Source of the DNA: Pseudomonadota bacterium
GTDB lineage: Bacteria; Desulfobacterota; Desulfobacteria; Desulfobacterales; JBDRRP01
Direction: 5' to 3'
DNA: 64,000 bases
NCBI GenBank assembly: GCA_043825735.1
Contig: JBDRRP010000107.1
Coordinates: 124,001 to 188,000 of the forward strand
Shown: positions 14,867 through 50,029 of the stretch, one piece after another
How the letters are laid out: the number at the start of each line of letters is the position of its first letter
Numbering within the stretch: position 1 is the stretch's first letter
The notes under the pieces: model-generated
Seen by the model: only the letters and a program-made list of their open reading frames with translations
Databases searched by the model: none
Told to the model about the DNA's origin: nothing
Made by a program: the position numbers and the translations under genes

Positions 14867-15300
14867 AGTGTTTAGCCATTTTCAGGAGTGTGTGGGAAAT
14901 CTCGACAACTTGGGAGCACCGCAGCGAAAGTTTGCCGGCATGCCACCACATCATCCCAGGAAAAGTCCGAGCAAAAATGACAATTTCTTCGAATGGCGCG
15001 CCGCTGGTTCAGTTTGCACTCCCGGAGTCCCTTCTTGTGAAAGACCAGTCTTTTCAACGATTGCCTCCCATTTCGGGTTTTCGTTAGAGGCTCATGCGCC
15101 ACCCGCTTTCCGTTCCGAATGGGCAAGTAAAAACCCCGACCAGTCGAGAGAAATCGTCTGGCCGGGGTTTTCTGGTACCTGTGCGAGCAGGCCATCAAAA
15201 TGCCCCTGCGGTGCGGCACGTTGTGTTGAGCGTGCCCGGCCTCCCATTATCCACAGCCTGGAATTGTTGTTGGACGGCGTTCTGATAAATAGGGTGCGGA

Positions 15301-15317
15301 TGTTAGATAGATGTTAA
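15301..15317 (-). promoter_or_regulatory. Pho-box-like direct repeat upstream of the kinase operon
   Basis: Minus strand TTAACA-tctat-CTAACA, followed 9 nt later by TATTTAT (-10-like). Confidence 0.5.
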
Positions 15318-33099: not shown

Positions 33100-33240
33100 A
33101 TCGTGTCGCCGCCCCGGAGGGCGGCGGGCGCGGATGGATATCGATTGCCAAAGCGGGGACACCGTTCGGCAGAGACTGGGCCCCGGTATCGGCCAATTAG
33201 TCGAAGGACATCGGCGATGGGTGGTTTCTCTGGCTACGGG

Positions 33241-33409
33241 GAATCCCCCCCCGGCCCCCCTTTTACAAAGGGGGGAGCCCCTCCGGCAACCATTTTACAA
33301 AGGAGGGAGTCCCTCCGGCAACCCTTTGGAAAAGGCCCCGCCGTCCAAGTCCCCCTTTGAAAAAGGGGGATTTAGGGGGATTCGAAAAAGGGGGATTTAG
33401 GGGGATTTT
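33241..33409. repeat. Cluster of CCCCC-TTT-n-AAA-GGGGG palindromes (REP-like)
   Basis: ccccctttgaaaaagggggatttaggggga and variants. Confidence 0.85.
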
Positions 33410-34811: not shown

Positions 34812-34938
34812 AGACCCGTATCCAGTTTCTTCAGTCATCTTGAGTTCTCCGTTGAAGAAGCAGAGATGGGCGGAGAATTTGTGTGCGCAGTGAATCGATC
34901 ATACGCCCCCCTCCGTTCTTGAAATGGCCGATCCATCC

Positions 34939-34974
34939 AAGTCCCCCTTTGAAAAAGGGGGATTTAGGGGGATT
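34939..34974. repeat. CCCCCTTT-AAAGGGGG palindrome copy directly after the exosortase stop
   Basis: Same motif as 33348-33380. Confidence 0.8.
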
Positions 34975-34976
34975 CA

Positions 34977-36068
34977 TCACCCCCGCCCCCCATCCACGCC
35001 ACCCCCCAGAATCGCCACAACCCGCCGGTCCTTCAGCGCGCCCTCGCCATGCTTGGCACGGATATGATCGATAATCCCCGCCTTTTCTTCTCCGCAGATC
35101 GGGCAGACGGTTCCACTTCGCATCTCTTTGAAGAGTTCGTCGCGCACAAAAAACAACCACAGCCCGAAGGGCAGAATCCACTGGTTGAGGATGATCAGCG
35201 CCACGAGGGGGCCAAAGGCGTAGCGGAAATGAAACTCGAGATAAAGCACCTTGATCAATCCGAAGATGAAGTAGGCTGCGACCAAAACGCCGAGACCGAT
35301 GCCGATCTGACGGGCTTTTCGCCGCCATCCGGTGTGCCGCGAGGCCAGCATGAGGGCGGAAAAGGCCACGAAGTGAAACGTGTTGAAAGTATCCGGGTAG
35401 CGTTTCAACTCTACGGGGACGGTCGCGGCCATTCCGAAAAGCGATAGCACCCAGCCAATGGCGAGCAGGTTGACACGAACGAAGGCCTCATCCAGAAACA
35501 GCCAGAGGATGAACAGGGCGCACGATGCGGCGGCGAAGCGCGCGGCAAACAGCGGCATGCTGTCTTTGGGGGGCGATTCGGCGGTCTCTCGAAGCCAGAT
35601 CATGCAGACAATGAGCACCATAAGGATCATTACGATCTGGCCGATATAGACATGGGCGATCTCGAACCAGAACCGCGAGTGCATCCCCACGATCACGATG
35701 AAGGCGAGCCTCGTCAGGTTGAACACAAACAGGCTGGGGATGCCGAGCGCCAGACCGAGGGCCTTGTGCCTGAGATCCGATGGATAGGCCAGCACGAAGC
35801 CGGAGAAAAGAATGATCACGAAGATCGCCGAGCATTCGGTGATGATTTTTACGCTGAATCCGGCCGTAGTGATGTTGACGCCCCGTACCGCCGCATCGAC
35901 GCCGAGCGCCGACAGGAGTATCCCGGTCAACGACGCCGTATAGGTGTTCATGGGGCCGATGAATGCCGTCGGCGGCAGATAGTTGACCAATGTATAGGAA
36001 ATGCCGCAAAAGAGAAGAAATTTGATCGTGAACGCAGCCATCGTTTTTTGAGGGGTGAGAGTAGTCAT
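34977..36068 (-). CDS. Exosortase/archaeosortase-family protein with extra membrane domain and C-terminal C2H2-like motif
   Basis: Triad motifs IITECSA (Cys), NLTRL (Arg), FEIAHVY (His); tail CPIC-x9-HIRAKH. Confidence 0.88.
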   Translation of the reverse strand: MTTLTPQKTMAAFTIKFLLFCGISYTLVNYLPPTAFIGPMNTYTASLTGILLSALGVDAAVRGVNITTAGFSVKIITECSAIFVIILFSGFVLAYPSDLRHKALGLALGIPSLFVFNLTRLAFIVIVGMHSRFWFEIAHVYIGQIVMILMVLIVCMIWLRETAESPPKDSMPLFAARFAAASCALFILWLFLDEAFVRVNLLAIGWVLSLFGMAATVPVELKRYPDTFNTFHFVAFSALMLASRHTGWRRKARQIGIGLGVLVAAYFIFGLIKVLYLEFHFRYAFGPLVALIILNQWILPFGLWLFFVRDELFKEMRSGTVCPICGEEKAGIIDHIRAKHGEGALKDRRVVAILGGGVDGGRG

Positions 36069-36333: not shown

Positions 36334-36512
36334 GCCGGTGCTCCCCGGGAAAGTTCCCCTTTAGAAAAGCCTCTGCTGCTCATGTCCCCCGTTGAGAAAG
36401 CCCCCGCGGTTAAAGTCCCCCTTTGAAAAAGGGGGATTTAGGGGGATTTGGTATTTGGATTTCCCACGGCGCTAAGAAAATCCCCCCCGGCCCCCCTTTT
36501 TCAAAGGGGGGA
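36334..36512. repeat. Composite CCCCCTTT-AAAGGGGG repeat unit
   Basis: Several palindromes with flanks shared with 47610-47790 and 49499-49850. Confidence 0.85.
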
Positions 36513-36925
36513 GAAAAAGAAGCCTACGGCCCACTTATGGAAAATAGGGTACAACTGCTAAGGTGTTTACAGGGACCGGAGTCGGCCAAATATATACCCA
36601 GGCAGGCCGGTTGAGCGACTGCAGGAGGATGAATCCGCCGCATCGGTTTCCGTTCACACCATACGATGGCGGAAGGGTCGGAACAAGGCTGAAAATATAA
36701 CCTCTCAGCAAGCAGAACCGGCTAACCTCCGGATAGTCCTCAATCGAATTCTAACTTGACACGGGGCGGTGGTCTCTGATTTTTATCGGGGCTGGTCTTC
36801 CGAACGAATCGATACTCGACGACGTTTCGGATTTGGGAAGAACGATTTTTACTCCACCCAAAGTTCGACGGAATCCGAAATATTCCTGGGCACTTTGCTG
36901 ATCCGCCGCCGGCGGGTACCAGAAA

Positions 36926-36970
36926 ACCCGGGACCGGCTGCAGGTGCGGCCGGTCCGGGTCCTCTTTTTT
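36926..36970 (+). terminator. Intrinsic terminator in the leader of the 37005 gene
   Basis: Stem acccg-ggaccggctgca / tgcggccggtcc-gggt, then cctctttttt. Confidence 0.75.
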
Positions 36971-37004
36971 TAACGCGCCATTCAGCCTTCAACGGGTCGA
37001 TGCC

Positions 37005-37928
37005 ATGAGATTATACCAGCGAAATAGTGTTTTTCTATTTTGCGCGATGCTGGCCTGGCATGTCACGGTGGATTGCCAAGCGTCCTACGTGCTGGGCACT
37101 TCGACCAGCGCCACGGTTACGGTCAGCGAAAATGGCGAGACCGTATTCAGCGGCTACGACAGTATGCGGCATGGCGTTTATTCCGCCAGCCGTGCTTTCG
37201 ATTCACTTCCTCGGATTGGCGGTGGTGACATCATCTCAGCGGAGGGCCGCGCTTACGCCGACTCCGCCAGCGCGACCATTGGTGCCTATGCCCATACCAG
37301 CGGCAAAGGTGTTTTGATCGACCCTGGATCGTCGACCGCTGTTTATGCGGCATCCATCTCCAATCTGACCGTACGGTACCGGGTCGTTTCGGATATGATT
37401 CCGGTCGGCACTCCGGTGGACCTTGTCGCAGAACTGTTGTTTCACGGAACGATGGACATGAAGTATTACCCGGTTAACGGGTTTCTCGGTATCTATGACA
37501 CTGTGAAAGCGTATGCCCCGGACGATACCCTTGTTGCCCAACACCAAGGCGGCGCATCTTACAGCAGTACTTGGGGGGCGTCTGTTAATGGCGGATGGAC
37601 TTATGGGGCTGCCCGGGATCCAAATCTCGATTTCGATGTGAGTTATATCGGCCAGTTGCAGTTTTCAGGCATCGTCGGCGATCAATTCGTCTTCTCGATG
37701 GATTTGTCGACCAACCTTCAGGAAGGCTCTTATGCATACAGAAAGATCATTGAAGGCGATATTCAGGGTAGCTACGAACTTTTCGCAACGGATCCGGACA
37801 CCGGTTTGATCATGGATTCTGTTTTCCTCGAACCCCAACCGGTCCCGATTCCAGCCGCCGCCTGGTTTTTCGCATCCGGCCTGGCCTGCCTGTCGGGTAT
37901 ACGGCGCCGGTCACGGAAGAGGCTTTGA
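37005..37928 (+). CDS. Exosortase-target surface protein (VPxPA/PEP-CTERM-type tail)
   Basis: Signal peptide; C-terminus VPIPAAAWFFASGLACLSGIRRRSRK. Confidence 0.9.
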   Translation: MRLYQRNSVFLFCAMLAWHVTVDCQASYVLGTSTSATVTVSENGETVFSGYDSMRHGVYSASRAFDSLPRIGGGDIISAEGRAYADSASATIGAYAHTSGKGVLIDPGSSTAVYAASISNLTVRYRVVSDMIPVGTPVDLVAELLFHGTMDMKYYPVNGFLGIYDTVKAYAPDDTLVAQHQGGASYSSTWGASVNGGWTYGAARDPNLDFDVSYIGQLQFSGIVGDQFVFSMDLSTNLQEGSYAYRKIIEGDIQGSYELFATDPDTGLIMDSVFLEPQPVPIPAAAWFFASGLACLSGIRRRSRKRL

Positions 37929-37944
37929 TCAGTCAGGATCATTC

Positions 37945-38089
37945 CGCCCCCCCTTTTACAAAGGGGGGAGAGAGAGAAGACCCCTTGGATACGGTGGGGT
38001 AGTGGGAGTCAGGCGGTGAGGACTGGGGGTGAACACCGGTGCAACGCCATGACAAGTCCCCCTTTGGAAAAGGGGGATTTAAGGGGATT
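37945..38089. repeat. Pair of CCCCCTTT-AAAGGGGG palindromes
   Basis: Copies at 37945-37968 and 38054-38089. Confidence 0.8.
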
Positions 38090-38133
38090 CCGAGCCAGGA
38101 GTTTCGTAGGGAACCGCAAAAAGGACACAGAAG

Positions 38134-38300
38134 ATGAAAATGGGTTTGGCAATACTATCCGCCCTTGTCGCGTTGCTTTGTTTTTCACCCGGTGGCGTTG
38201 CCGCGCCCAGGAATCTATCCATCATCGGAACCGCCGGTTACGACAGCAACGGCGATGGGGCAATCGAGTCCTACAACCTCTGAAGGTGATGTGACTTCGT
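38134..38300 (+). pseudogene. Internally deleted remnant of a secreted DUF1566-type gene
   Basis: 38134-38283 gives signal peptide + LSIIGTAGYDSNGDGAIESYNL*, then out-of-frame EGDV like the RDGDV end of the next gene. Confidence 0.5.
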
Positions 38301-39972: not shown

Positions 39973-40694
39973 GAGAAATCTCCCGTTGTTGGAAACGAGG
40001 TTCTGAATCCACATGCCCCAGTCCCTTCCGGGAAGGGCGTGTTTGATATGGCCATACCCACCCGGTAACACCGATTTGTTTGCGCAAGATGAGTGTCTGC
40101 ACCGATCCGAAAAAGCGCCACATGGTTTTGCACAGTGCATCCAGATGCGGTGGGTGCGACCGGTCCGGCGACGGGCGGCCGTGCCATGCCCATAAATAAA
40201 ATACTGACCACTAATATTTAGCAAATACGGCAAGTCTAAAAAGGCCGCATTCGGGGAGGACGGCTTTACATGCCACCTGCGGCAGGCAATCCGGACAGTC
40301 CCGTAAAAAGGCTTAAAAGTAACGCTGTCATACCCGGTAGTTCGTGTACGTCCAGAAATGCCTCTCCCCGGGCGTGAGGGGATAGGGAAGGGGCACTATA
40401 TATGAGCGATAACTGTTTAATTGCGGGTGGTTGACACCATCATCACGCCCCTCTCCAATCGAGAGCTGGAGATGAGCACACCGCCCACGGTTGGAAACGA
40501 TAACCCCCGTAAGAAACGCAGAATGCCGGCTCCGGCCGGCGTGACGGCAAAAAGATCGCTTCGGCTTTTCCGGGAGCATCCATTTTGAAGAATCACCAGA
40601 TGCCGGTGCGATCGATGCTTTCTGAGGAGACCCTTCGTTGAAAAAAAATGCACCCGTCGAGAAAAGCAAAAAGAAAAAATGCAGTGAGTTCGAA

Positions 40695-40871
40695 ATGTTA
40701 AATGATTACGAATCACGGTTTGTCAGGCTGATGGAGTTTCTCAGCGCGCTCAATGGCGGTGGATTCACCGGCTATGTCAAGATCAATTACAGCCAGGGGG
40801 CGATCGCCCGCGTCGAGAAATTTGAAGAAGTCTTAAAGAGCAATAAAAAATCCGTAATTACAAATGATTAG
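40695..40871 (+). CDS. Small DUF2292/YezD-like protein (58 aa)
   Basis: GFTGYVKINYSQGAIARVEKFE resembles the FG-x-V-x-I...G-x-I-xx-IE pattern of DUF2292. Confidence 0.6.
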   Translation: MLNDYESRFVRLMEFLSALNGGGFTGYVKINYSQGAIARVEKFEEVLKSNKKSVITND

Positions 40872-41048
40872 AACCGCGATGGACAATACGATCAGGCTTG
40901 CGAGCCATTCCCGGCAGGGTTTGCCGAAAAACCATCGAAGCCTAATAAAGTGCTAACACGGCCTCGGTAGAAGACAGAAAACTGAATTGAGAGGGGATTG
41001 AAAAACCCCTGATCGGGAACTTGGCCGATTCGCTTTCGCGAACACCGG

Positions 41049-41097
41049 AAAGCCCGAACCCAAAGCGCTCAGCGCGTAGTGGGTTCGGGCTTTTTTT
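41049..41097 (+). terminator. Intrinsic terminator 55 nt upstream of the 41152 gene
   Basis: aaagcccgaaccc / gggttcgggcttt stem, T7 run. Confidence 0.85.
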
Positions 41098-41151: not shown

Positions 41152-42021
41152 ATGAGAATCTGGCTGGTCATATTGACACTGTTTTCACTGGTGGCGGCCG
41201 CCGCGCCGTCAGACGCCTATTTCGAGTCTCCGTCATTGAATCTCTTTCAGGTCGTCTACAAGGCCGGCGGCGTTGAAGTGGTTACGGATCTGGGTGCTAT
41301 CAAAAACGCTCAGGGCGATACCGCATTGCAGCCCGGGCAGACGCTGGCGCCTTCGGCGGGGGTATCGCACCTGGCGTTCAGTGCCTTCGGAACGGAAACC
41401 GCCTGGGGTGACCTTCGGGTCGCCTATTTTGGGACCGATGCCGACAACTTCACCTGGTTTGCCACTGCCAGCGCAGACAAGCCCGATTTTAAAGGCAGCA
41501 GCGAAGAGTTCGGATACGCTAATTTCTCCTTTTCAAATTACTATAAAGCCCAATCCGCATCCCAGGGAACCAATCCAGTGACCGGGCAATCCGATTACTT
41601 CCATGACCCGAATCCCGAGTTGGCGATGATCCCGGCGCTCCACCGGTCATTGATGCACACCGCCTATAATATCGGTATGAATCATGCTTACGACAGCGCA
41701 ACCGGAGACTGGTCGGCATTGCCGGACGCAGGCACCTTTGCCGGACTTCTTGCGGGACCGGTCGGAGAAGTCGACCTGTCGGATATGGCCGCCTTCGGGT
41801 ACGTGGACATGTATCTCTGGAGCGCCGAAGATCTTGCCGCGCCCTACGGCGTCCTGCGATTGACAGATAACGGTGAGACGGCGCTGATGACCTATATCGC
41901 GCCGACGACGCCGATACCCATCCCCGCCAGCATCGTTCTTCTCGGCAGCGGCATTGCCGGGGTCGTCGCCGCAAGAAGAAAAAGAAATCGAAATTCTGAC
42001 GAGCGGCTCATTGAGCGATAA
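41152..42021 (+). CDS. Exosortase-target surface protein (IPIPA tail), paralogue of 42438
   Basis: AGGAG RBS, signal peptide, IPIPASIVLLGSGIAGVVAARRKR; shares AYF, DLG, GYVD motifs with next gene. Confidence 0.9.
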   Translation: MRIWLVILTLFSLVAAAAPSDAYFESPSLNLFQVVYKAGGVEVVTDLGAIKNAQGDTALQPGQTLAPSAGVSHLAFSAFGTETAWGDLRVAYFGTDADNFTWFATASADKPDFKGSSEEFGYANFSFSNYYKAQSASQGTNPVTGQSDYFHDPNPELAMIPALHRSLMHTAYNIGMNHAYDSATGDWSALPDAGTFAGLLAGPVGEVDLSDMAAFGYVDMYLWSAEDLAAPYGVLRLTDNGETALMTYIAPTTPIPIPASIVLLGSGIAGVVAARRKRNRNSDERLIER

Positions 42022-42171: not shown

Positions 42172-42396
42172 TCCTCCAGAAAAAGCCAAACCCGCCGTGA
42201 GGCGGGGACGGAAAGCGACGGGTCTTGAACCCACCCACCTTCGCGGCAGCAGACGGTGCAGACTGGCACAGGGTCTCTCGATAGAGATCCACGAAAGTAG
42301 CAGCAAAGAAAAGACAACCAGGGATCGACCATACCAGTACTGCCGGAAGCGACAACGCGAAGCGATGATGGACAAGACAGCCGGGCTGCCTGGGAG
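42172..42396 (+). promoter_or_regulatory. c-di-GMP-I (GEMM-I) riboswitch with large P3 insertion
   Basis: gccAAAcccgcc-GTGA-ggcggg-GACGGAAAG-cgacgggtcttg ... caagacagccgggctgcc; P1 ctccag/ctgggag. Confidence 0.85.
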
Positions 42397-42437: not shown

Positions 42438-43196
42438 ATGAAACGCATGATGAGCATATTGTTGGCGGCATTTCTGATTTTCGCCGTCGCAGGGCCGGCA
42501 GCGGCCTACTTCGATGACCTGCACCTGATCCGCAGCATTTACACCAATGCCGGAACAACTGAAATCGGCTCAGACTTGGGTGCGGATGTCTCCACACTCA
42601 CCCTGGCCAACCCGCTCAACGATTTCCGCGGCGACCTGATCGCCCTCAGCGCTTTTGACGGCGGCGATCTGGCTGTTGGCTACTGGGCACACGCGCAAGC
42701 CAATACTGATTTTTATGCCACAGGCCTTGTGGGCGGCACCCTGACAATGTACGGCCGCAAGCAGTCGGCGGCCGACGGTGTCATGAACGCCACGCAGGCG
42801 CTTTATGCAGCTGAAAATGCTACCACAGCAACCATCATCAAACCGGACCTCGGTTCGTACTTCAATAAGTTTGAAGTAAATGGCAATAACCTCGGGTCTA
42901 TGGGTAGCATCCTTAGCACTCCGATCATGACGGCGAGCTTGGCTGATCTGGCGACCGTTGGCTATGTCGATCAGGCGCTGTACTTCTTCGATTACAATGG
43001 CAGCTCAAGCGCCAAAAACGGTATTGAAGTGGCGACTATCCGCACTTTCCTGACCTTCGACGGTACTACCATGGACCTTGCCGGCGACAAGATCGCCACC
43101 GTGATTAATCCTTCGGCCGTTCCGGTTCCTGCCGCGGTGTGGCTGCTGGGCTCCGGTCTTCTGGGCCTCATCGGCATCCGCCGCCGCAACGCCTAA
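42438..43196 (+). CDS. Exosortase-target surface protein (VPVPA tail)
   Basis: GGAGG RBS, signal peptide, VPVPAAVWLLGSGLLGLIGIRRRNA. Confidence 0.93.
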   Translation: MKRMMSILLAAFLIFAVAGPAAAYFDDLHLIRSIYTNAGTTEIGSDLGADVSTLTLANPLNDFRGDLIALSAFDGGDLAVGYWAHAQANTDFYATGLVGGTLTMYGRKQSAADGVMNATQALYAAENATTATIIKPDLGSYFNKFEVNGNNLGSMGSILSTPIMTASLADLATVGYVDQALYFFDYNGSSSAKNGIEVATIRTFLTFDGTTMDLAGDKIATVINPSAVPVPAAVWLLGSGLLGLIGIRRRNA

Positions 43197-43270: not shown

Positions 43271-44701
43271 ATGTTGAAGAAAATGTTCAAAGGCATCCTG
43301 ATGGGCGGCGCCCTTCTGGCGCTGACCGTCCCGGCCGCTCAGGCGGCTGATGTCAACATCAACCTCTACGGCGCCTCTGCCCAGCACCTGTTCTGGAACG
43401 ATGCTGCCGACGACTTCCTGGCTTCCCAGTCCTGCACCGGCATTGCCCAAGACGAGTATAACAGCAAACACGGCATCACCCGCGGTACCTGTGGCGCCGA
43501 CAATGTTTACATCCGTTATTCCTCCAAGGCTTCTTTCGACGGCATCTATGCGGTCAAGGGTGCTGTCAACACAGACAGCTGTACGACTGCTTTCCAGCGC
43601 AAAATGGTCGACGAAGCCTCCTGCACGGACTGGGTGCTGGGCGGAACCGCCTGCAGTGCGCTCAAATGCCAGGATGTGACAGTCGGCGCCTCCGACGTAG
43701 CCGGCGACAGTTTCCTGCAGAGCAGTGCGGGACAACTCAAAGGACCCAATGGCGGGGGTTACATCACCCGTTCTTTTCCGGCCACCGGCGTGGATACCTC
43801 CGGCTTAATCGCGAGGCAGCCGGTTGTCGTTCCCTTCGGCTTTTTTGCCAACAACACCGTCAACAAGACCAAGTGCATCGGTCCTGATCCGCTCACCCCG
43901 ACCCCGGCCGCCCACAAGGCCGTTTCCACCTGGGGTTATCAGTGCTACGACCCGGATGAGGACGGCAAGTCCGAAGACTGCATCGGCTTCTACAAGTGTG
44001 TCGGCGGTACCTGCTCCGGCGGTGTGAACTCCGGCAATGCCTGCACCCAGGCCAACCAGTGCCCGGATGTGGCCCTTGAAAACACTAACTGCCAGCGCAT
44101 ACCGTTGGACAACATCAGCCGCATCATGGCAGTCAACATCTTCTCAGGACAGGCTTGGTACTGGACGGACTTCGGCGCCTGGTACAACAGCGACCCCATC
44201 GTTGCCTGCCTTCGCCATGCCGGCTCCGGCACACATTCCACCCTTGACTGGGCAGTCATGAGAAGCGCCGCCGGCGACTGGGGCTGGCCCTTGGTGACAG
44301 AAGAAAGTGCCGCTGACCCGACGGTGTGGTTCAACGACGGTTCCTCCGACGAAATGAAGTGCATCAACACGCTGGCCGGCGCCATCGGTTACGCCGATGC
44401 CGATCAGCTCGAAGGCAAATCCAACTACGAGAACGTCCACGCCTTGAAGTACAACGGCATCGAGCCCCGCCGGACCAAGGTCCGCAACGGCGAGTACGAC
44501 TTCTACTCCAATCAGTGGCTCTACTTCAACCACACTCCGACGGTTTTTGAAGAAGCACTGGTCTCGTTCGCTTCCGATCCGGCAAAAATTCCCGCGTCCA
44601 AGGCCAAGTTCTGGGCGGCCAGCGGCGAAATGGTGTACAACAAAAGCAACGACCGCGTTTATCCGGGGTATATCGGCGCTGGCCTTCCGCAGCTGCCGTA
44701 A
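43271..44701 (+). CDS. Secreted Cys-rich PstS/DING-like periplasmic-binding-fold protein
   Basis: Signal peptide; YGASA, GASDV, RHAGSGT, AIGYAD, NGEYDF in PstS order; 16 Cys. Confidence 0.8.
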   Translation: MLKKMFKGILMGGALLALTVPAAQAADVNINLYGASAQHLFWNDAADDFLASQSCTGIAQDEYNSKHGITRGTCGADNVYIRYSSKASFDGIYAVKGAVNTDSCTTAFQRKMVDEASCTDWVLGGTACSALKCQDVTVGASDVAGDSFLQSSAGQLKGPNGGGYITRSFPATGVDTSGLIARQPVVVPFGFFANNTVNKTKCIGPDPLTPTPAAHKAVSTWGYQCYDPDEDGKSEDCIGFYKCVGGTCSGGVNSGNACTQANQCPDVALENTNCQRIPLDNISRIMAVNIFSGQAWYWTDFGAWYNSDPIVACLRHAGSGTHSTLDWAVMRSAAGDWGWPLVTEESAADPTVWFNDGSSDEMKCINTLAGAIGYADADQLEGKSNYENVHALKYNGIEPRRTKVRNGEYDFYSNQWLYFNHTPTVFEEALVSFASDPAKIPASKAKFWAASGEMVYNKSNDRVYPGYIGAGLPQLP

Positions 44702-44753
44702 CCCTAAAAAATTACACCGAAGGGCACCCTTCGGCAAGTGGCTTAATACGAAG

Positions 44754-44786
44754 AAAGGGCCTTCCTCGGAAGGCCCTTTCCCTTTT
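44754..44786 (+). terminator. Intrinsic terminator after the PstS-like gene
   Basis: aaagggccttcc-tc-ggaaggcccttt followed by cccttt. Confidence 0.75.
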
Positions 44787-45070: not shown

Positions 45071-45135
45071 AAGCATGGCAGGATCGACTCCGCCTGCAGT
45101 TTTCACTTACAAGTTGATTGAAAGGACTTTCCACG

Positions 45136-45969
45136 ATGCACATGAGTAAAATTGTCGGATGGGTGACGCTGTTTTCACTGATCATGGCAGGTATGGTCGC
45201 GTGTGCCGGAATCGGCGTTCGCCGGCCGATCGAATCCGGGGAACGGTTGTCTCTCGATTTCACCTGCCGTTTGGCGGACGGCAGGCTTGCCGCCAGCACG
45301 GATCCCACTGCCGAAAATCTTCCGAAATCTGATATTGCCGCAGTTTTCAGAACGCGGAAGGCGAAAGAGCCCCTGATCGTGACCGCCGGAAGTGACGAAA
45401 AACTGTACCGCAAACCCGGTGAGCGCGGATTCGAGGGGGAGATCGTCGCCCAGCTTGCGGCCGCAGCGGTCGGCGGAAAACCCGGAGAGGCCCGGAAAAC
45501 CATTCTCGAAGCGCCGGTAGGGCAGATGAAACCCAATGAGCGGTTGCTCGAGATGGCGAAGGTGCGCATCCGGCCGAAACAATTCCGCATGAACCGGGAG
45601 GAGTACCGCATGCGTACCGGCGGAAAGGAAAATCCGGTTGTCGGAGATGAGTTTACCATCGATCCCAGTTTTCCCGGAAAGGTGACCGGCGTTACCGATA
45701 CGGAAGTCATCGTGGTGTTCGATGCCGAAATCGGCAAAACGGTCGAAACACCGCTGGGCCAGGGAATCATCCGCGACGGCGGAATACACTATGAAATCGT
45801 CATCGACGCCAAGGCCGGCGATCTCGTGAGATCCGGGGCCATGGTGGGGCGAATCATCGCCGTGGAAGAACGAAGCGTCACCATCGATTATGGGAGTGCT
45901 TTCGGCGGTGAAAAGCTGTTTTGCGATTATCGGGTTGAAAGGGCTGAAAAAGAAGAAAAAAAGGAGTAG
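45136..45969 (+). CDS. Degenerate FKBP/SlyD-like probable lipoprotein
   Basis: MVAC lipobox-like; IESGERLSLDFT, DYGSAFGGEKL (degenerate DFNHPLAGK); paralogous to 46282. Confidence 0.7.
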   Translation: MHMSKIVGWVTLFSLIMAGMVACAGIGVRRPIESGERLSLDFTCRLADGRLAASTDPTAENLPKSDIAAVFRTRKAKEPLIVTAGSDEKLYRKPGERGFEGEIVAQLAAAAVGGKPGEARKTILEAPVGQMKPNERLLEMAKVRIRPKQFRMNREEYRMRTGGKENPVVGDEFTIDPSFPGKVTGVTDTEVIVVFDAEIGKTVETPLGQGIIRDGGIHYEIVIDAKAGDLVRSGAMVGRIIAVEERSVTIDYGSAFGGEKLFCDYRVERAEKEEKKE

Positions 45970-46077
45970 AAAATTACCCTTTAAAGATATTTGGCTCATT
46001 CTTTTCTAACTTTACTTCCATATACATAGACTTTGATGATTGGGCACTGGTTGCCGGAGTGGGATAGGGCAGAGCGG

Positions 46078-46150
46078 GAATCCCCCCCGGCCCCCCTTTT
46101 TCAAAGGGGGGAGTGAGGAAAACCTCCCCGGCCCCACCTTTCTTACAGGG
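46078..46150. repeat. CCCCCTTT-AAAGGGGG palindrome copies
   Basis: aatcccccccggccccccttttt caaagggggg. Confidence 0.8.
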
Positions 46151-46281
46151 GGAAGAGAAAAACTTCCTTTGAAAAACGGGGGGAAGGGGGCAGGTCCGGG
46201 AGCTTTATTCAGAACCGGAAAATGAAGTGAGCCGCGTACGAGAAATCTGGACGGAATTCAAAGCTGCCATAAAGGAAATAG

Positions 46282-47577
46282 ATGATGAATACAGTTGCGA
46301 AACACCGGCTGAAATGTGTGTCGATATTTCTTGTCATCCTTTCCCTGGCGATGCCGGTTTGCTGGGCCGGGACATCAGCGGATGGAAAAACAGCGCCCGG
46401 CAAAAAAGCCGGCCAAGACATTAGCAAGGCGGAAGCGGTCGAGATGCTCAACAAGGCGGTCGAACGGGCAAAGGCGACCGGGAGCACCGTTCACATCGAT
46501 CTGCCCACGGACCCCAGTCGCGTCGAAGCCGGGGATCTGATCACGGTCGAGTATACGGTTCGATTGTCCGATGGGGCTCTCGTCAGAACGACGCAGCCGG
46601 CAAAAACGCCAAAAAAGACGGATACCGCAGCGGCCATGGAAAACAGATACCTTAGTGGCCCGGAGGAGATTCTGGCCGGAGACAAAGGCGTTTTCCCGGG
46701 AATCGGCTTGTCCTCGGTCGGCCTTAAAATCGGCGAAAAAAAGACCGTTGTCGTCAAGCCCGAGGACGCTTTTGGAGCGACCGATCCGGGAAAGCGGATT
46801 AACCTGCCCTGCATCAAGATGGTGCCGGTGCGGGTGAATCTGCCGCCGGCGGCCTGGATGGAGCGGTTCAACGCCTTTCCGGTGGTCGGCAGGGAGGTCA
46901 ATCTGATCCCATATTTCAAGGCGCGTGTCCTCGATGTGGCCGAGAATTTCGTGACCTTGGAATTCCAGGTCAAGGATGGCCTGCGGATCGATGAAGACTT
47001 CGGCTCCTTCGATGTCTCCATCGTCAATGACCAGATTCGGATGCAGCTCACCCCCACCATCGGAGCACCGTTTCAGATGGACCCGAACCAGAAAGGGCAG
47101 GGCTCACCGCAAAATGGGCGGATCGTTTCCACTGACGGCGAAACCTTCACCGTCGATTTCAACCATCCACTGGCAGGAAAAGACCTGCATATCGATCTGG
47201 AAGTCGTCAGTCTCATTAAGTCCACCGAATTAGCCAACACGACCTTGCCCTGGATGGAATCCCTCGATGGCGCCGATACCGCAGCACGGAAGGCTCACAA
47301 GCCGTCGGTGCTGGTCCTTTACGCATCGTGGTGCAGTTGGAGCAAGAAACTGCTTAGCGAGTCGCTTGAGGATCCGCGGATCAAACGGATGAAAGATGAT
47401 TTCGTCTGGGCAAAGGTAGACTCCGATCAGGACCAGGAGATCAAAAAGCAGTTCAATCAGAACGGCTTTCCGCTGGTGGTGATCAAGGACGCCGAAGGAA
47501 AGGAAGTGAAACGGTTCGACGGGTACACGGATGCAGCCACGCTGGCCGCGGCGCTGAAAAAGCTGCAGAAGAGCTGA
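46282..47577 (+). CDS. Exported FKBP/SlyD-type PPIase fused to a thioredoxin-like domain
   Basis: GDLITVEY, PEDAFG, DFNHPLAGKDL; C-terminal ASWCSWSK (CxxS) and GFP cis-Pro loop. Confidence 0.87.
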   Translation: MMNTVAKHRLKCVSIFLVILSLAMPVCWAGTSADGKTAPGKKAGQDISKAEAVEMLNKAVERAKATGSTVHIDLPTDPSRVEAGDLITVEYTVRLSDGALVRTTQPAKTPKKTDTAAAMENRYLSGPEEILAGDKGVFPGIGLSSVGLKIGEKKTVVVKPEDAFGATDPGKRINLPCIKMVPVRVNLPPAAWMERFNAFPVVGREVNLIPYFKARVLDVAENFVTLEFQVKDGLRIDEDFGSFDVSIVNDQIRMQLTPTIGAPFQMDPNQKGQGSPQNGRIVSTDGETFTVDFNHPLAGKDLHIDLEVVSLIKSTELANTTLPWMESLDGADTAARKAHKPSVLVLYASWCSWSKKLLSESLEDPRIKRMKDDFVWAKVDSDQDQEIKKQFNQNGFPLVVIKDAEGKEVKRFDGYTDAATLAAALKKLQKS

Positions 47578-47609
47578 AGCTGCGGAACCGGTGGCGCTTA
47601 AAGGGGTTG

Positions 47610-47790
47610 TGGTATTTGGATTTCCTTCGGCCCTCCGGGAAATCCCCCCCCGGCCCCCCTTTTTCAAAGGGGGGAGAAAGAGGAAGAGCCTTATTTCAAA
47701 GGGGAGAGAGAGGCGGGGTGTCCCGGTTCATCGATAGGAAAAGTCCCCCTTTGGAAAAGGGGGATTTAGGGGGTTTTGGTATTTGGCCCC
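47610..47790. repeat. Composite CCCCCTTT-AAAGGGGG repeat unit
   Basis: Palindromes with ggtatttgg flanks. Confidence 0.85.
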
Positions 47791-47905
47791 CAATCGGCCT
47801 GGCAAGGCTGTCGGTTTGTAAATGTGCGATAATTCAGGTCCAACAGACGGGGCGAAGGGGGAACGCTTGCCGAACTCCCTCGGTCTTTCTTGATATCGGA
47901 GGGAT

Positions 47906-49486
47906 GTGTTTCATTTGAAGGGGTCGCTATTTCTCATGGTGGCGCTGATCGTCGCAACGGCAGCGGTGTGCCGCCCGGTTGAGGCTTCTACTGAGACCGA
48001 GGATGTCACCTTCGAGATCAAGACCTTTTCCGTCGAGGGCAACACCGTTCTTGCCGAACGGGATCTCAACCGTCTGCTCGAAACCTTCACCGGAGACGGC
48101 AAGACTGCGGCGGACGTCGAGGCGGCGCGGGATGGGCTTGAGCGGTTCTACCACCAGAACGGCTACCCTACGGTTTTGGTCAATATTCCGGAGCAGACGG
48201 TGGACCACGGACTGGTGAGCCTGCAAGTGATCGAAAGCCGGATCCGCAGGGTGCGGGTTACAGGAAACAAGTACCACACCATGGAGAGCATTCGAAGGCA
48301 TCTGCCGAGCCTGAGTTCCGGAGAAATCCTTTACCTTCCCAAAATCAGAAGGGAACTCGCCCGTGCCAACCGTGTTCCGGATCTTCAGGTGGCACCTGTT
48401 CTGGCCCCGGGAAGGGAATTGGGCAGCATTGACGTCGAATTGAAGGTCGAAGACCGTTTGCCGCTGCACGGCAGCATCGAACTCAACAACCGGTCCTCTC
48501 ATGACACGACTCCCATGCGGTTGAACGGGTCGATTCGGTACGACCATCTCTGGCAGCTCGAGCACTCGCTTTCACTCCAGTTTCAGGCCTCGCCGCAGGA
48601 CTGGAGCGAAGTGAAGGTGTTCTCAGGGTCCTACTCCCTGCCGGCGCCGTGGCAGGACGACCATCTTCTGTCTTTTTATTATATATACTCCGACAGCGCG
48701 ACGGCCACCGGTGACGGGTTCAGCGTGATCGGGAGGGGCAAAATCGCTGGGGCGAGATATGTGATGGGGCTGCCGCCCGTGGAACGCTACCAGCACAACA
48801 TCACGCTGGGGATTGATCACAAAGATTTCAAAGAAGACCAGGCCGGCGAGGAGAAACCCATCGCGTACACACCTGCCACCGTCGGATACGCTTCATCCAT
48901 GGCTGACGAATTTGGAACCACCCAATTCAGCGCGTCCGTCAACCTGCTTTTCAGGGAAGTTTTTTCGGATCCCTCGTCCCAGTTCGAGGCGAAGCGAAAC
49001 GGCAGCCGAGGCAATTACATCTATTTTACCGGAGGCATCGAACGGAGGCAAAAACTGCCATTGGATGCAGGTTTGTTTGTGAAGCTTGACGGGCAGATCG
49101 CCGACCAGCCGCTCATCAACAACGAACAGTATGCGGGCGGCGGCGTGGGAAACGTCCGGGGATTCAAGGCAGCCGAGGTACTGGGGGATAACGCCATTCA
49201 CGCGACCATCGAGGTCAACAGCCCCGAATGGCGTCAGCTTTTCGATTTGAAAGGCAACTGGTCCATGACGCCGTATGTTTTTTACGATGTCGCCAATCTG
49301 CACGTCATCGATGCCTTGCCGGAGCAGACGCCGAATTTCTTTCTGGCCGGGACCGGTTTCGGCGTCGAGGGCGGAATCTGGGGAAATACCTACTATAAAC
49401 TCGATTGGGGCTATGCCCTCGAATCGACAGGCAATACCGCCAGCGGAGAGAACCGGTTTTACTATCAGATGCGGTATGTGTTCTGA
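47906..49486 (+). CDS. ShlB/FhaC/HecB-family (TpsB) outer-membrane transporter
   Basis: POTRA (VEGNTVL, YHQNGY, IPEQ), GGVGNVRGF (VRGY/F loop), terminal aromatic YVF. Confidence 0.92.
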   Translation: MFHLKGSLFLMVALIVATAAVCRPVEASTETEDVTFEIKTFSVEGNTVLAERDLNRLLETFTGDGKTAADVEAARDGLERFYHQNGYPTVLVNIPEQTVDHGLVSLQVIESRIRRVRVTGNKYHTMESIRRHLPSLSSGEILYLPKIRRELARANRVPDLQVAPVLAPGRELGSIDVELKVEDRLPLHGSIELNNRSSHDTTPMRLNGSIRYDHLWQLEHSLSLQFQASPQDWSEVKVFSGSYSLPAPWQDDHLLSFYYIYSDSATATGDGFSVIGRGKIAGARYVMGLPPVERYQHNITLGIDHKDFKEDQAGEEKPIAYTPATVGYASSMADEFGTTQFSASVNLLFREVFSDPSSQFEAKRNGSRGNYIYFTGGIERRQKLPLDAGLFVKLDGQIADQPLINNEQYAGGGVGNVRGFKAAEVLGDNAIHATIEVNSPEWRQLFDLKGNWSMTPYVFYDVANLHVIDALPEQTPNFFLAGTGFGVEGGIWGNTYYKLDWGYALESTGNTASGENRFYYQMRYVF

Positions 49487-49498
49487 TTTCAATGCCAG

Positions 49499-49850
49499 TA
49501 CCGGTGCATCACCAGAACAAGTCCCCCTTTGGAGAAGGGGGAGGCGGAAATCCCCCCCGGCCCCCCTTTTGCAAAGGGGGGAGAGTGGGGAAGCCCTTTT
49601 GCAAAGGGGGGAGAGAGGAAAACCCTTTGGAAACGGGGGTAGTGGAAGTCCGGCGGAGAGAGTTATGCCCCACCGGTGCATCGCCAGGACAAGTCCCCCT
49701 TTGGAAAAGGGGGATTTAGGGGGATTTGGTTTTTGGATTTCACCCGGGCCAAGAAATCCCCCCCGACCCCCCTTTTTCAAAGGGGGAGAAAGAGGAGCTC
49801 CCCTTTTTCAAGGGGGGGTGAAAGAGGAGATCCCCTTTTTTAAAGGGGGG
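49499..49850. repeat. Largest cluster of CCCCCTTT-AAAGGGGG palindromes
   Basis: About eight palindromic copies between tpsB and tpsA. Confidence 0.88.
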
Positions 49851-50029
49851 AGAAAGCGAAGGTTCCGCTTTTCAAACTGGGTGAGGCAATTTCTGGTTTG
49901 TTATGGAGAACCGGCTTTCAAAAAGAAGCGCAACGCGGGCTGAGATCGATGAAGGAGCAAAAAGCGAAAACCGGGTCTCGCGCAGAGGCGCAGAGGCGCA
50001 GAGAATAACGGGTTTTATAGGATGACCAC

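Follow-up and report, generated by a model that had tools for sequence, protein, structure and literature searches.

The window, a 64,000-nucleotide stretch of a 314-kb contig (C107) of a Desulfobacterales genome, carries on its forward strand a small gene (40638-40871), a 41-nt bulged RNA hairpin (41015-41055) and an intrinsic terminator (41049-41097), followed by a gene for a VPLPA-CTERM surface protein (41152-42021; TIGR03370 above cut-off). Further along the same strand are a c-di-GMP-I riboswitch (42175-42263; RF01051, 43.4 bits), a second VPLPA-CTERM protein gene (42438-43196), whose product was PepA-like in the profile scan at a score below the PepA cut-off, and a gene for a protein with a PstS-like periplasmic-binding fold (43271-44701; TIGR02136 at E 1.7e-11, below cut-off; PDB 4ecf at E 2.6e-4). 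A terminator-like stem at 44753-44780 precedes a TpsB gene and a 9.7-kb adhesin gene. In the reading developed below, the small protein would be an antiterminator acting on the hairpin, and 41152-42021 the first gene gated in this way. A short intergenic repeat recurs in the window (33134-33400, 34883-35074, 36423-36614, 38016-38188, 46040-46225, 47607-47918 and 49405-49943); it reads SPFxKGG/KGDLGGF in spurious ORFs and is probably a REP- or MITE-like element.

The small conserved protein

The initial annotation had proposed a gene of 58 aa starting at ATG 40695. That the ORF is a gene was borne out by its conservation: single-sequence searches with the small protein found 10 relatives, and a profile built from 28 rows recovered 257 representatives at E ≤ 0.001. 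The start probably lies further upstream, at TTG 40638, and the product probably has 77 aa, because GAGGAG is located 8 nt 5′ of this TTG and the closest homologues (P0002 and P0004) have 78 aa each. The single-sequence search of 301 genomes of the order gave matches in 19, of which 15, including this genome, were genuine; those in G090, G093, G219 and G257 lay inside long ORFs or had E > 0.001 and were discarded as spurious, as were G003 from a draw of 150 genomes of the order and G441 from a phylum sample. A search of the genome itself found a single copy of the gene.

The protein has a Lys-rich N-terminus followed by a helix and a beta-hairpin, and carries the family signature FTGY-K-N-SQG-I-R-EKFEE. 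Across 149 rows, the core glycines G26 and G35 never vary, and conservation reaches at least 90% at F24, T25, N31, Q34, R39, E41, E44 and E45. The AlphaFold model (pLDDT 82) has a helix-strand-strand order, with a helix at residues 4-21 and strands at 27-33 and 36-43. The ORF ending at 40871 is thus a real conserved gene of an alpha-beta-beta family. Scans against Pfam and NCBIfam gave no match at E ≤ 1, PHROGs gave nothing informative, and structure searches revealed neither a sensor domain nor a recognisable RNA-binding fold. Nothing clear emerged from fold searches of the PDB with Foldseek (best E 0.58) or in the VIA-wide comparison (best Z 3.6), and the best match in BFVD was an unnamed 65-aa protein (E 0.048); such weak results do not establish the protein as a new fold. 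Its predicted dimer scored 0.40 against a mark of 0.42.

Variants of the gene occur elsewhere. A subfamily among proteins P0113-P0157 begins directly at the helix, and at one locus (L009, G298:C42:437-731) the small gene is present in two tandem copies, in a genome with six copies of the RNA motif. By eye, one 355-aa protein (P0158) fuses the small domain to a homologue of the window ORF 45118-45969; it is a single record from the search of longer proteins, the sole fusion, and possibly reflects a lost stop codon.

Hairpin and terminator downstream of the small gene

Comparison of the loci of homologues yielded a single shared element, which in the window lies at 41015-41055 (forward strand) and scored 47.9 bits against a covariance model whose training set included this copy. 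The motif has a 3-bp GC base. A 2-nt bulge separates this from a 4-bp stem (with one mismatch in the window copy), a bulged G separates the 4-bp stem from a 3-bp one, and beyond an asymmetric loop comes the apical hairpin, which is variable. An exact-pattern scan of metagenomes found at least 125 stretches, from which 124 loci were examined, with at least 106 distinct motif strings. At the pair that the search pattern left unconstrained, the 106 strings listed had UA (85), CG (15) or UG (6), and none had CA. When 37 copies that the covariance model had detected, most of them not in the pattern set, were aligned by fitting to the model structure, two-sided changes were present at 5 of 10 core pairs and 98.9% of the cells could pair. 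RNAalifold predicted the same core from 67 rows. Judged from the covariation at the free pair and at the core pairs, the pairing of the motif is under selection; part of the conservation of the base and the U-rich stem is imposed by their need to pair with the arm of the terminator. At the gathering score, Rfam 15 gave no match to the motif in the window, and 10 pattern-matching loci also gave none at E ≤ 1; the pattern had 0 matches in viral contigs. Three metatranscriptomes from the same study contained no contigs covering the element, a result that carries no weight for or against its expression. On these comparative grounds, the element is a conserved structured cis-regulatory RNA that no Rfam family matches.

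The terminator at 41049-41097, which had already been proposed at these positions, was confirmed by folding (-32.2 kcal/mol, z -7.4). It has 7 nt in common with the hairpin, its 5′ arm being the 3′ strand of the putative antiterminator, and the two folds are mutually exclusive. Among the 105 metagenome copies listed, a terminator was found on the same arm in 91 (shuffled sequences: mean 0.6, maximum 3), and 14 had no terminator by the rule used. The terminator was the stabler fold in 89 of the 91 listed (medians -25.8 for the terminator and -14.3 for the hairpin), and the default outcome would therefore be a stop.

The competing fold had been drawn differently in the initial annotation, as the second of two similar tandem stems. 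That a fold upstream excludes the terminator held up, with 7 nt in common, but the terminator arm pairs on its 5′ side with 41015-41027 and not with 40960-40968. The tandem arrangement did not survive comparison, which left one conserved hairpin. The first stem (40894-40943, forward strand) is a marginal, non-conserved hairpin outside the motif: its z was -1.7, 12 of 200 shuffles folded equally well, an unfiltered search with the covariance model did not match 40894-40943, and its words were found in 0 of 58 regions downstream of homologues. The pairing drawn for the second stem is the lowest-energy fold of the isolated stretch (z -1.8), and its 5′ arm (40960-40968) was likewise found in 0 of the 58 regions.

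The motif had also been expected to follow homologues of the small gene. This held only in part: it lies directly 3′ of the gene in only 4 of 14 genomes selected by the protein first, but is present somewhere in all 14, sometimes on other contigs (weakest E 0.002). Among the 75 informative metagenome copies listed, 38 have the small ORF upstream, within 30 nt in 24 of them and at distances reaching 975 nt, and 37 are orphans, defined by the lack of the ORF within at least 600 nt of upstream sequence; these loci were collected by way of the motif, and a further 31 copies were too short to judge. In one draw of 150 genomes of the order (at least 90% complete), 8 contained both the protein and the RNA, 1 (G019) had the protein without the RNA, 2 had the RNA without the protein, and 139 had neither, so that the RNA was found in 8 of 9 Desulfobacterales genomes with the protein and in 2 of 141 without it. 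In G019 the RNA was later found at E 0.002. In G062 and G133, drafts of 97% and 96% completeness, the RNA is present and the protein was not found even at E ≤ 5. When only the 71 VPLPA-CTERM-positive genomes were considered, the split was 8, 1, 1 and 61 in the same order (Fisher p ~1e-8, a value overstated by kinship), and the RNA therefore tracks the protein and not the targets. In the phylum sample, protein and RNA occurred in the same 2 of 150 genomes. The 8 genomes with both span 7 families, several of which also hold members with neither, and the distribution is patchy within families f20, f29, f35 and f75. The co-occurrence could partly reflect a single mobile gene cluster, and related genomes are not independent. 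Taken with these reservations, the distribution suggests that the small protein is the likely ligand of the hairpin.

Target genes and putative Pho-box promoters

Four strong motif copies are present in this genome, all on contig C107 and each before a gene whose product has a VPLPA-CTERM tail. The second copy in the window, with its terminator (36884-36975, forward strand), scored 33.2 bits and is outside the training set; it has no small ORF upstream and precedes the VPLPA-CTERM gene 37005-37928. On the reverse strand, a weak further copy (15162-15209; 13.8 bits, E 0.2, not significant alone) with a strong terminator, together spanning 15110-15209, has a Pho-like repeat near 15316 and precedes an HDOD-GAF kinase gene (14866-12692), beyond which the same strand carries a hybrid kinase gene and pstSCAB (9154-5573). 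Contig C107 contains all the motif copies, pstSCAB, type II secretion genes, TpsB/TpsA and exosortase H, as well as 10 of the genome's 31 strict Pho-like repeats, described below, and looks like a phosphate-starvation surface island.

Among 70 motif strings in longer loci, 51 have a downstream ORF, and 20 of these 51 ORFs matched PEP- or VPLPA-CTERM models at E ≤ 1e-4. Re-scanning of 26 other downstream ORFs revealed 6 weak PEP/VPLPA tails and 5 calcineurin-like phosphoesterases. Further targets are filamentous-haemagglutinin, TpsB-like, UpxY and glycosyltransferase genes and one alkaline phosphatase gene. At L065 the copy precedes a gene for an UpxY-family antiterminator, which suggests a cascade of two antitermination systems; at L095 it precedes an exopolysaccharide-type glycosyltransferase gene. 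By eye, c-di-GMP-I riboswitch-like sequences adjoin the motif and terminator at L016, L019, L171, L192 and L197; the one in the window is confirmed by Rfam.

PhoB sites consist of two 11-bp direct repeats (available text of PMC3978041), and such promoter repeats, the mark of a Pho regulon, were found in the regions upstream of the motif and of the ORF. A Pho-like repeat lies upstream of the ORF in 27 of 43 cases at period 11, compared with 10-11 at other periods. It was also found before 14 of 37 held-out orphan leaders (0.7 expected), and its local variant before 14 of 24 genome-derived leaders (1.3 expected). Upstream of the ORF in the window there is no Pho-like repeat (best score 1.4). A probable Pho-box promoter lies instead between the ORF and the motif, at 40941-40973 on the forward strand, with half-sites 40941-40946 and 40952-40957 at the 11-bp period and a possible -10 element at 40968-40973, from which we infer a transcription start near 40980. 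The 5′ arm of the second stem of the initial annotation sits in the spacer of this promoter. The promoter is 57 nt before the hairpin, a spacing similar to that of two orphan copies, and because it separates the ORF from the motif, the regulated transcript in this genome probably does not include the window ORF. A sigma-70 consensus promoter was not found after the terminator, which the probable promoter precedes.

The pattern of 40941-40973 recurs upstream of the best phoB match and of two pstS genes. In its strict local form it occurs 31 times in the genome, including these three genes and three motif copies; its derivation used both pstS genes and another three motif copies, and the hits at phoB and at 40941-40957 are independent of this derivation. 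Further strict repeats are located at ~511 (C107:124511) and ~45996 (C107:169996), the latter before an FKBP-thioredoxin gene (46282-47577). A matrix trained on other lineages did not rank the pst genes of this genome highly, and a looser local pattern showed no genome-wide peak at period 11 (54 matches versus 44-94). The genome encodes 6 PhoB-like proteins, none over the cut-off. The assignment to PhoB rests on the likeness of the repeats and on gene context, and another OmpR-family regulator with 11-bp repeats may act here.

Two other candidates for the upstream signal were rejected. The strict sigma-54 pattern was found in 1 of 45 regions upstream of the ORF (0.8 expected) and the loose one in 7 of 45 (2.1 expected, maximum 5), far below the 11-bp repeat (19 versus 1.8). 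A 10-nt word before three local copies was present in 0 of 66 metagenome leaders and was read as the local last half-site of the repeat.

Proposed regulation, alternatives and relatives

With the hairpin in the leaders of genes for PEP-CTERM proteins, phosphatases and other surface or secreted proteins, the reading to which we give slightly better than even credence is a protein-dependent attenuator in the style of BglG and its RAT site, built with an unrelated protein and gating a phosphate-starvation surface regulon, the binding itself being presumed from comparative data. PhoB would start transcription at the Pho-box promoters, and the small protein would bind the bulges of the nascent hairpin. 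The bound hairpin would persist until the polymerase has cleared the U-tract, resulting in read-through. The small protein would act in trans on every motif copy in the genome. A feed-forward delay would result wherever the small gene is itself preceded by a Pho box and followed by a copy. In this genome the small gene is without a Pho box and could therefore supply a second input, with c-di-GMP possibly a third. The initial annotation had already envisaged read-through into the surface-protein cluster under the control of the small protein or another ligand; covariation, terminator overlap and co-occurrence lend this good comparative support, but its drawn boundaries and its tandem arrangement were not retained.

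A small-molecule riboswitch sensing a phosphate-status metabolite or a nucleotide messenger, with the protein merely co-regulated, would account for the conserved bulges and the ON-switch platform, which fit an aptamer, for the coherent phosphate and surface targets, and for the apparent absence of the protein from 2 of the 10 RNA-positive genomes. At ~40 nt, with one hairpin and few conserved unpaired bases, the motif is small for an aptamer, however; moreover, 61 of the 62 VPLPA-positive genomes that lack the protein gave no match to the RNA, and the ORF is at most 30 nt from the motif in 24 listed copies. We regard this explanation as unlikely. About equally unlikely, in our view, is processive antitermination, in which the hairpin would be a loading site (like lambda nut) and the polymerase, modified by the protein, would pass several terminators further along these long operons for adhesins and surface proteins. 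The 14 of 105 listed copies without an overlapping terminator, the common tandem copies, the stem at 44753-44780 before the TpsB and adhesin genes, and the similar protein-then-RNA order of ConAn (available text of PMC8191782) are consistent with it, but the 91 other listed copies overlap their own terminator exactly at the common arm, where simple competition suffices, and most orphan copies precede single short genes.

The short distance from stop codon to motif (at most 30 nt in 24 of the 38 linked copies listed) would suit translation-coupled attenuation, with ribosomes ending on the small ORF masking or freeing the 5′ strand and the peptide secondary. This is very improbable given the 37 of 75 informative listed copies without an ORF upstream, the distances of up to 975 nt, the invariant residues and confidently predicted fold of the protein, and the probable promoter that separates ORF and motif in the window. 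Finally, the hairpins could belong to the ordinary terminators of one dispersed gene cluster, free of any ligand and with fixed read-through. The window hairpin alone is indeed no stabler than shuffles (z -1.1); the covariation and fixed bulges outside the terminator, the placement in leaders and the tight co-occurrence with one protein family leave this explanation hardly any credence.

The protein-dependent attenuator thus preferred resembles BglG/LicT with RAT, in which a hairpin with two internal loops overlaps a stabler terminator and forms only when the protein is bound (available text of PMC3105407). As with the CAT domains of BglG, SacY and LicT, the target is a short two-bulge hairpin partly overlapping a stabler intrinsic terminator (available portions of PMC3105407 and PMC12591593), and the presumed ON-switch logic and use of one protein for several sites are similar. 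Unlike these proteins, the small protein is a 77-aa single domain of predicted alpha-beta-beta fold, without CAT (PF03123), PRD or another sensor domain; Pfam and NCBIfam gave no CAT or PRD match in the window protein or its homologues. The RNA, the phosphate and surface targets and the occurrence in Desulfobacterota also differ from those of BglG/RAT. ANTAR proteins (AmiR, NasR, EutV; PF03861) likewise provide protein-dependent read-through of leader terminators in multi-site regulons, but their targets are dual hairpins (Table 1 of PMC12591593), whereas the motif here is a single bulged hairpin, and PF03861 did not match the small protein. In ConAn1/ConAn2, a protein gene and then an RNA element stand at the start of a long operon, as here; the ConAn system, however, works processively, with an RNA that serves as the antiterminator, and belongs to Gram-positive conjugative plasmids (PMC8191782, available text), whereas the RNA here overlaps its terminator and recurs as orphans. 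PF17362 (ConAn1-like) matched neither the window protein nor its homologues.

A 2025 review lists CAT, ANTAR and HutP as types of protein-dependent attenuation (available text of PMC12591593). No entry listed by a full-text literature search described the motif or the small-protein family, and the motif is unmentioned in the available text of two motif-discovery papers (PMC11109978 and PMC8632094); the supplement of PMC11109978 covers Geobacter and Desulfobacteraceae motifs and may list it, so that a prior unnamed listing is possible. On the comparative evidence, the RNA switch is real and well supported; it has a probable new protein partner and would be a variant of protein-dependent attenuation.

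The small ORF had initially been called DUF2292-like. The HMM check of this assignment gave no PF10055 match at E ≤ 1 in the window protein or 46 homologues (22-bit cut-off), nor at E ≤ 10 at the small-protein locus in a search of the genome itself, and any resemblance is remote at most. Alignment of the two families with hhalign gave a gapless stretch of 36 columns at E 0.003 and a probability of 11%, with only 5 DUF2292 rows, and E 0.02 with a smaller alignment; the Atlas score for DUF2292 likeness was 0.81, which is a lead only. The helix-strand-strand order is common to the predicted models of the small protein and DUF2292/YezD/OscA, but the signature residues differ. DUF2292 genes, too, can have a hairpin with a similar short core 3′ of the gene, sometimes overlapping a terminator: this was found at 3 of 5 true DUF2292 loci (L203-L205), with a terminator at L203 and as tandem hairpins at L204. 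Compared with this hairpin, the motif here is a longer RNA with extra stems, and its covariance model did not match the 5 DUF2292 loci; Rfam gave no match to the DUF2292-associated hairpin. The targets also differ, being phosphate and PEP-CTERM genes here and sulfur and phage genes for DUF2292; in the case of oscA, a gene for a sulfate-binding protein belongs to the same transcriptional unit (available text of PMC3596284). In viral sequences, 6 of 109 matches to the DUF2292 hairpin pattern had a DUF2292-like ORF upstream (L223, L224, L232, L246, L278 and L323), and 5 of these 6 are among the 10 that passed the terminator rule; a DUF2292 protein query against annotated phages gave no match. In the literature search, no report of RNA binding by a DUF2292 protein came up.

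A remote kinship of the two families gains plausibility from the parallel arrangement of gene and hairpin at DUF2292 loci. It is conceivable, though we hold this only tentatively, that they belong to an unrecognised superfamily of stand-alone RNA-binding antiterminators of ~45 residues and alpha-beta-beta fold that includes DUF2292/YezD/OscA, with a cognate bulged hairpin for each branch: the phosphate-starvation surface regulon here, sulfur scavenging and phage operons elsewhere. If true, attenuation proteins would comprise one more class alongside CAT, ANTAR and HutP, and a widespread DUF would acquire a function. With a protein of 77 aa and an RNA of 41 nt, a test would be precise and cheap and would also make a DUF2292-type function testable, and a protein-plus-hairpin ON switch with natural variants could serve as a regulatory part. 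For sulfate reducers and syntrophs, in which the control of such surface and phosphatase genes is poorly known, the proposed switch would link phosphate limitation to PEP-CTERM surface proteins, phosphatases and adhesins.
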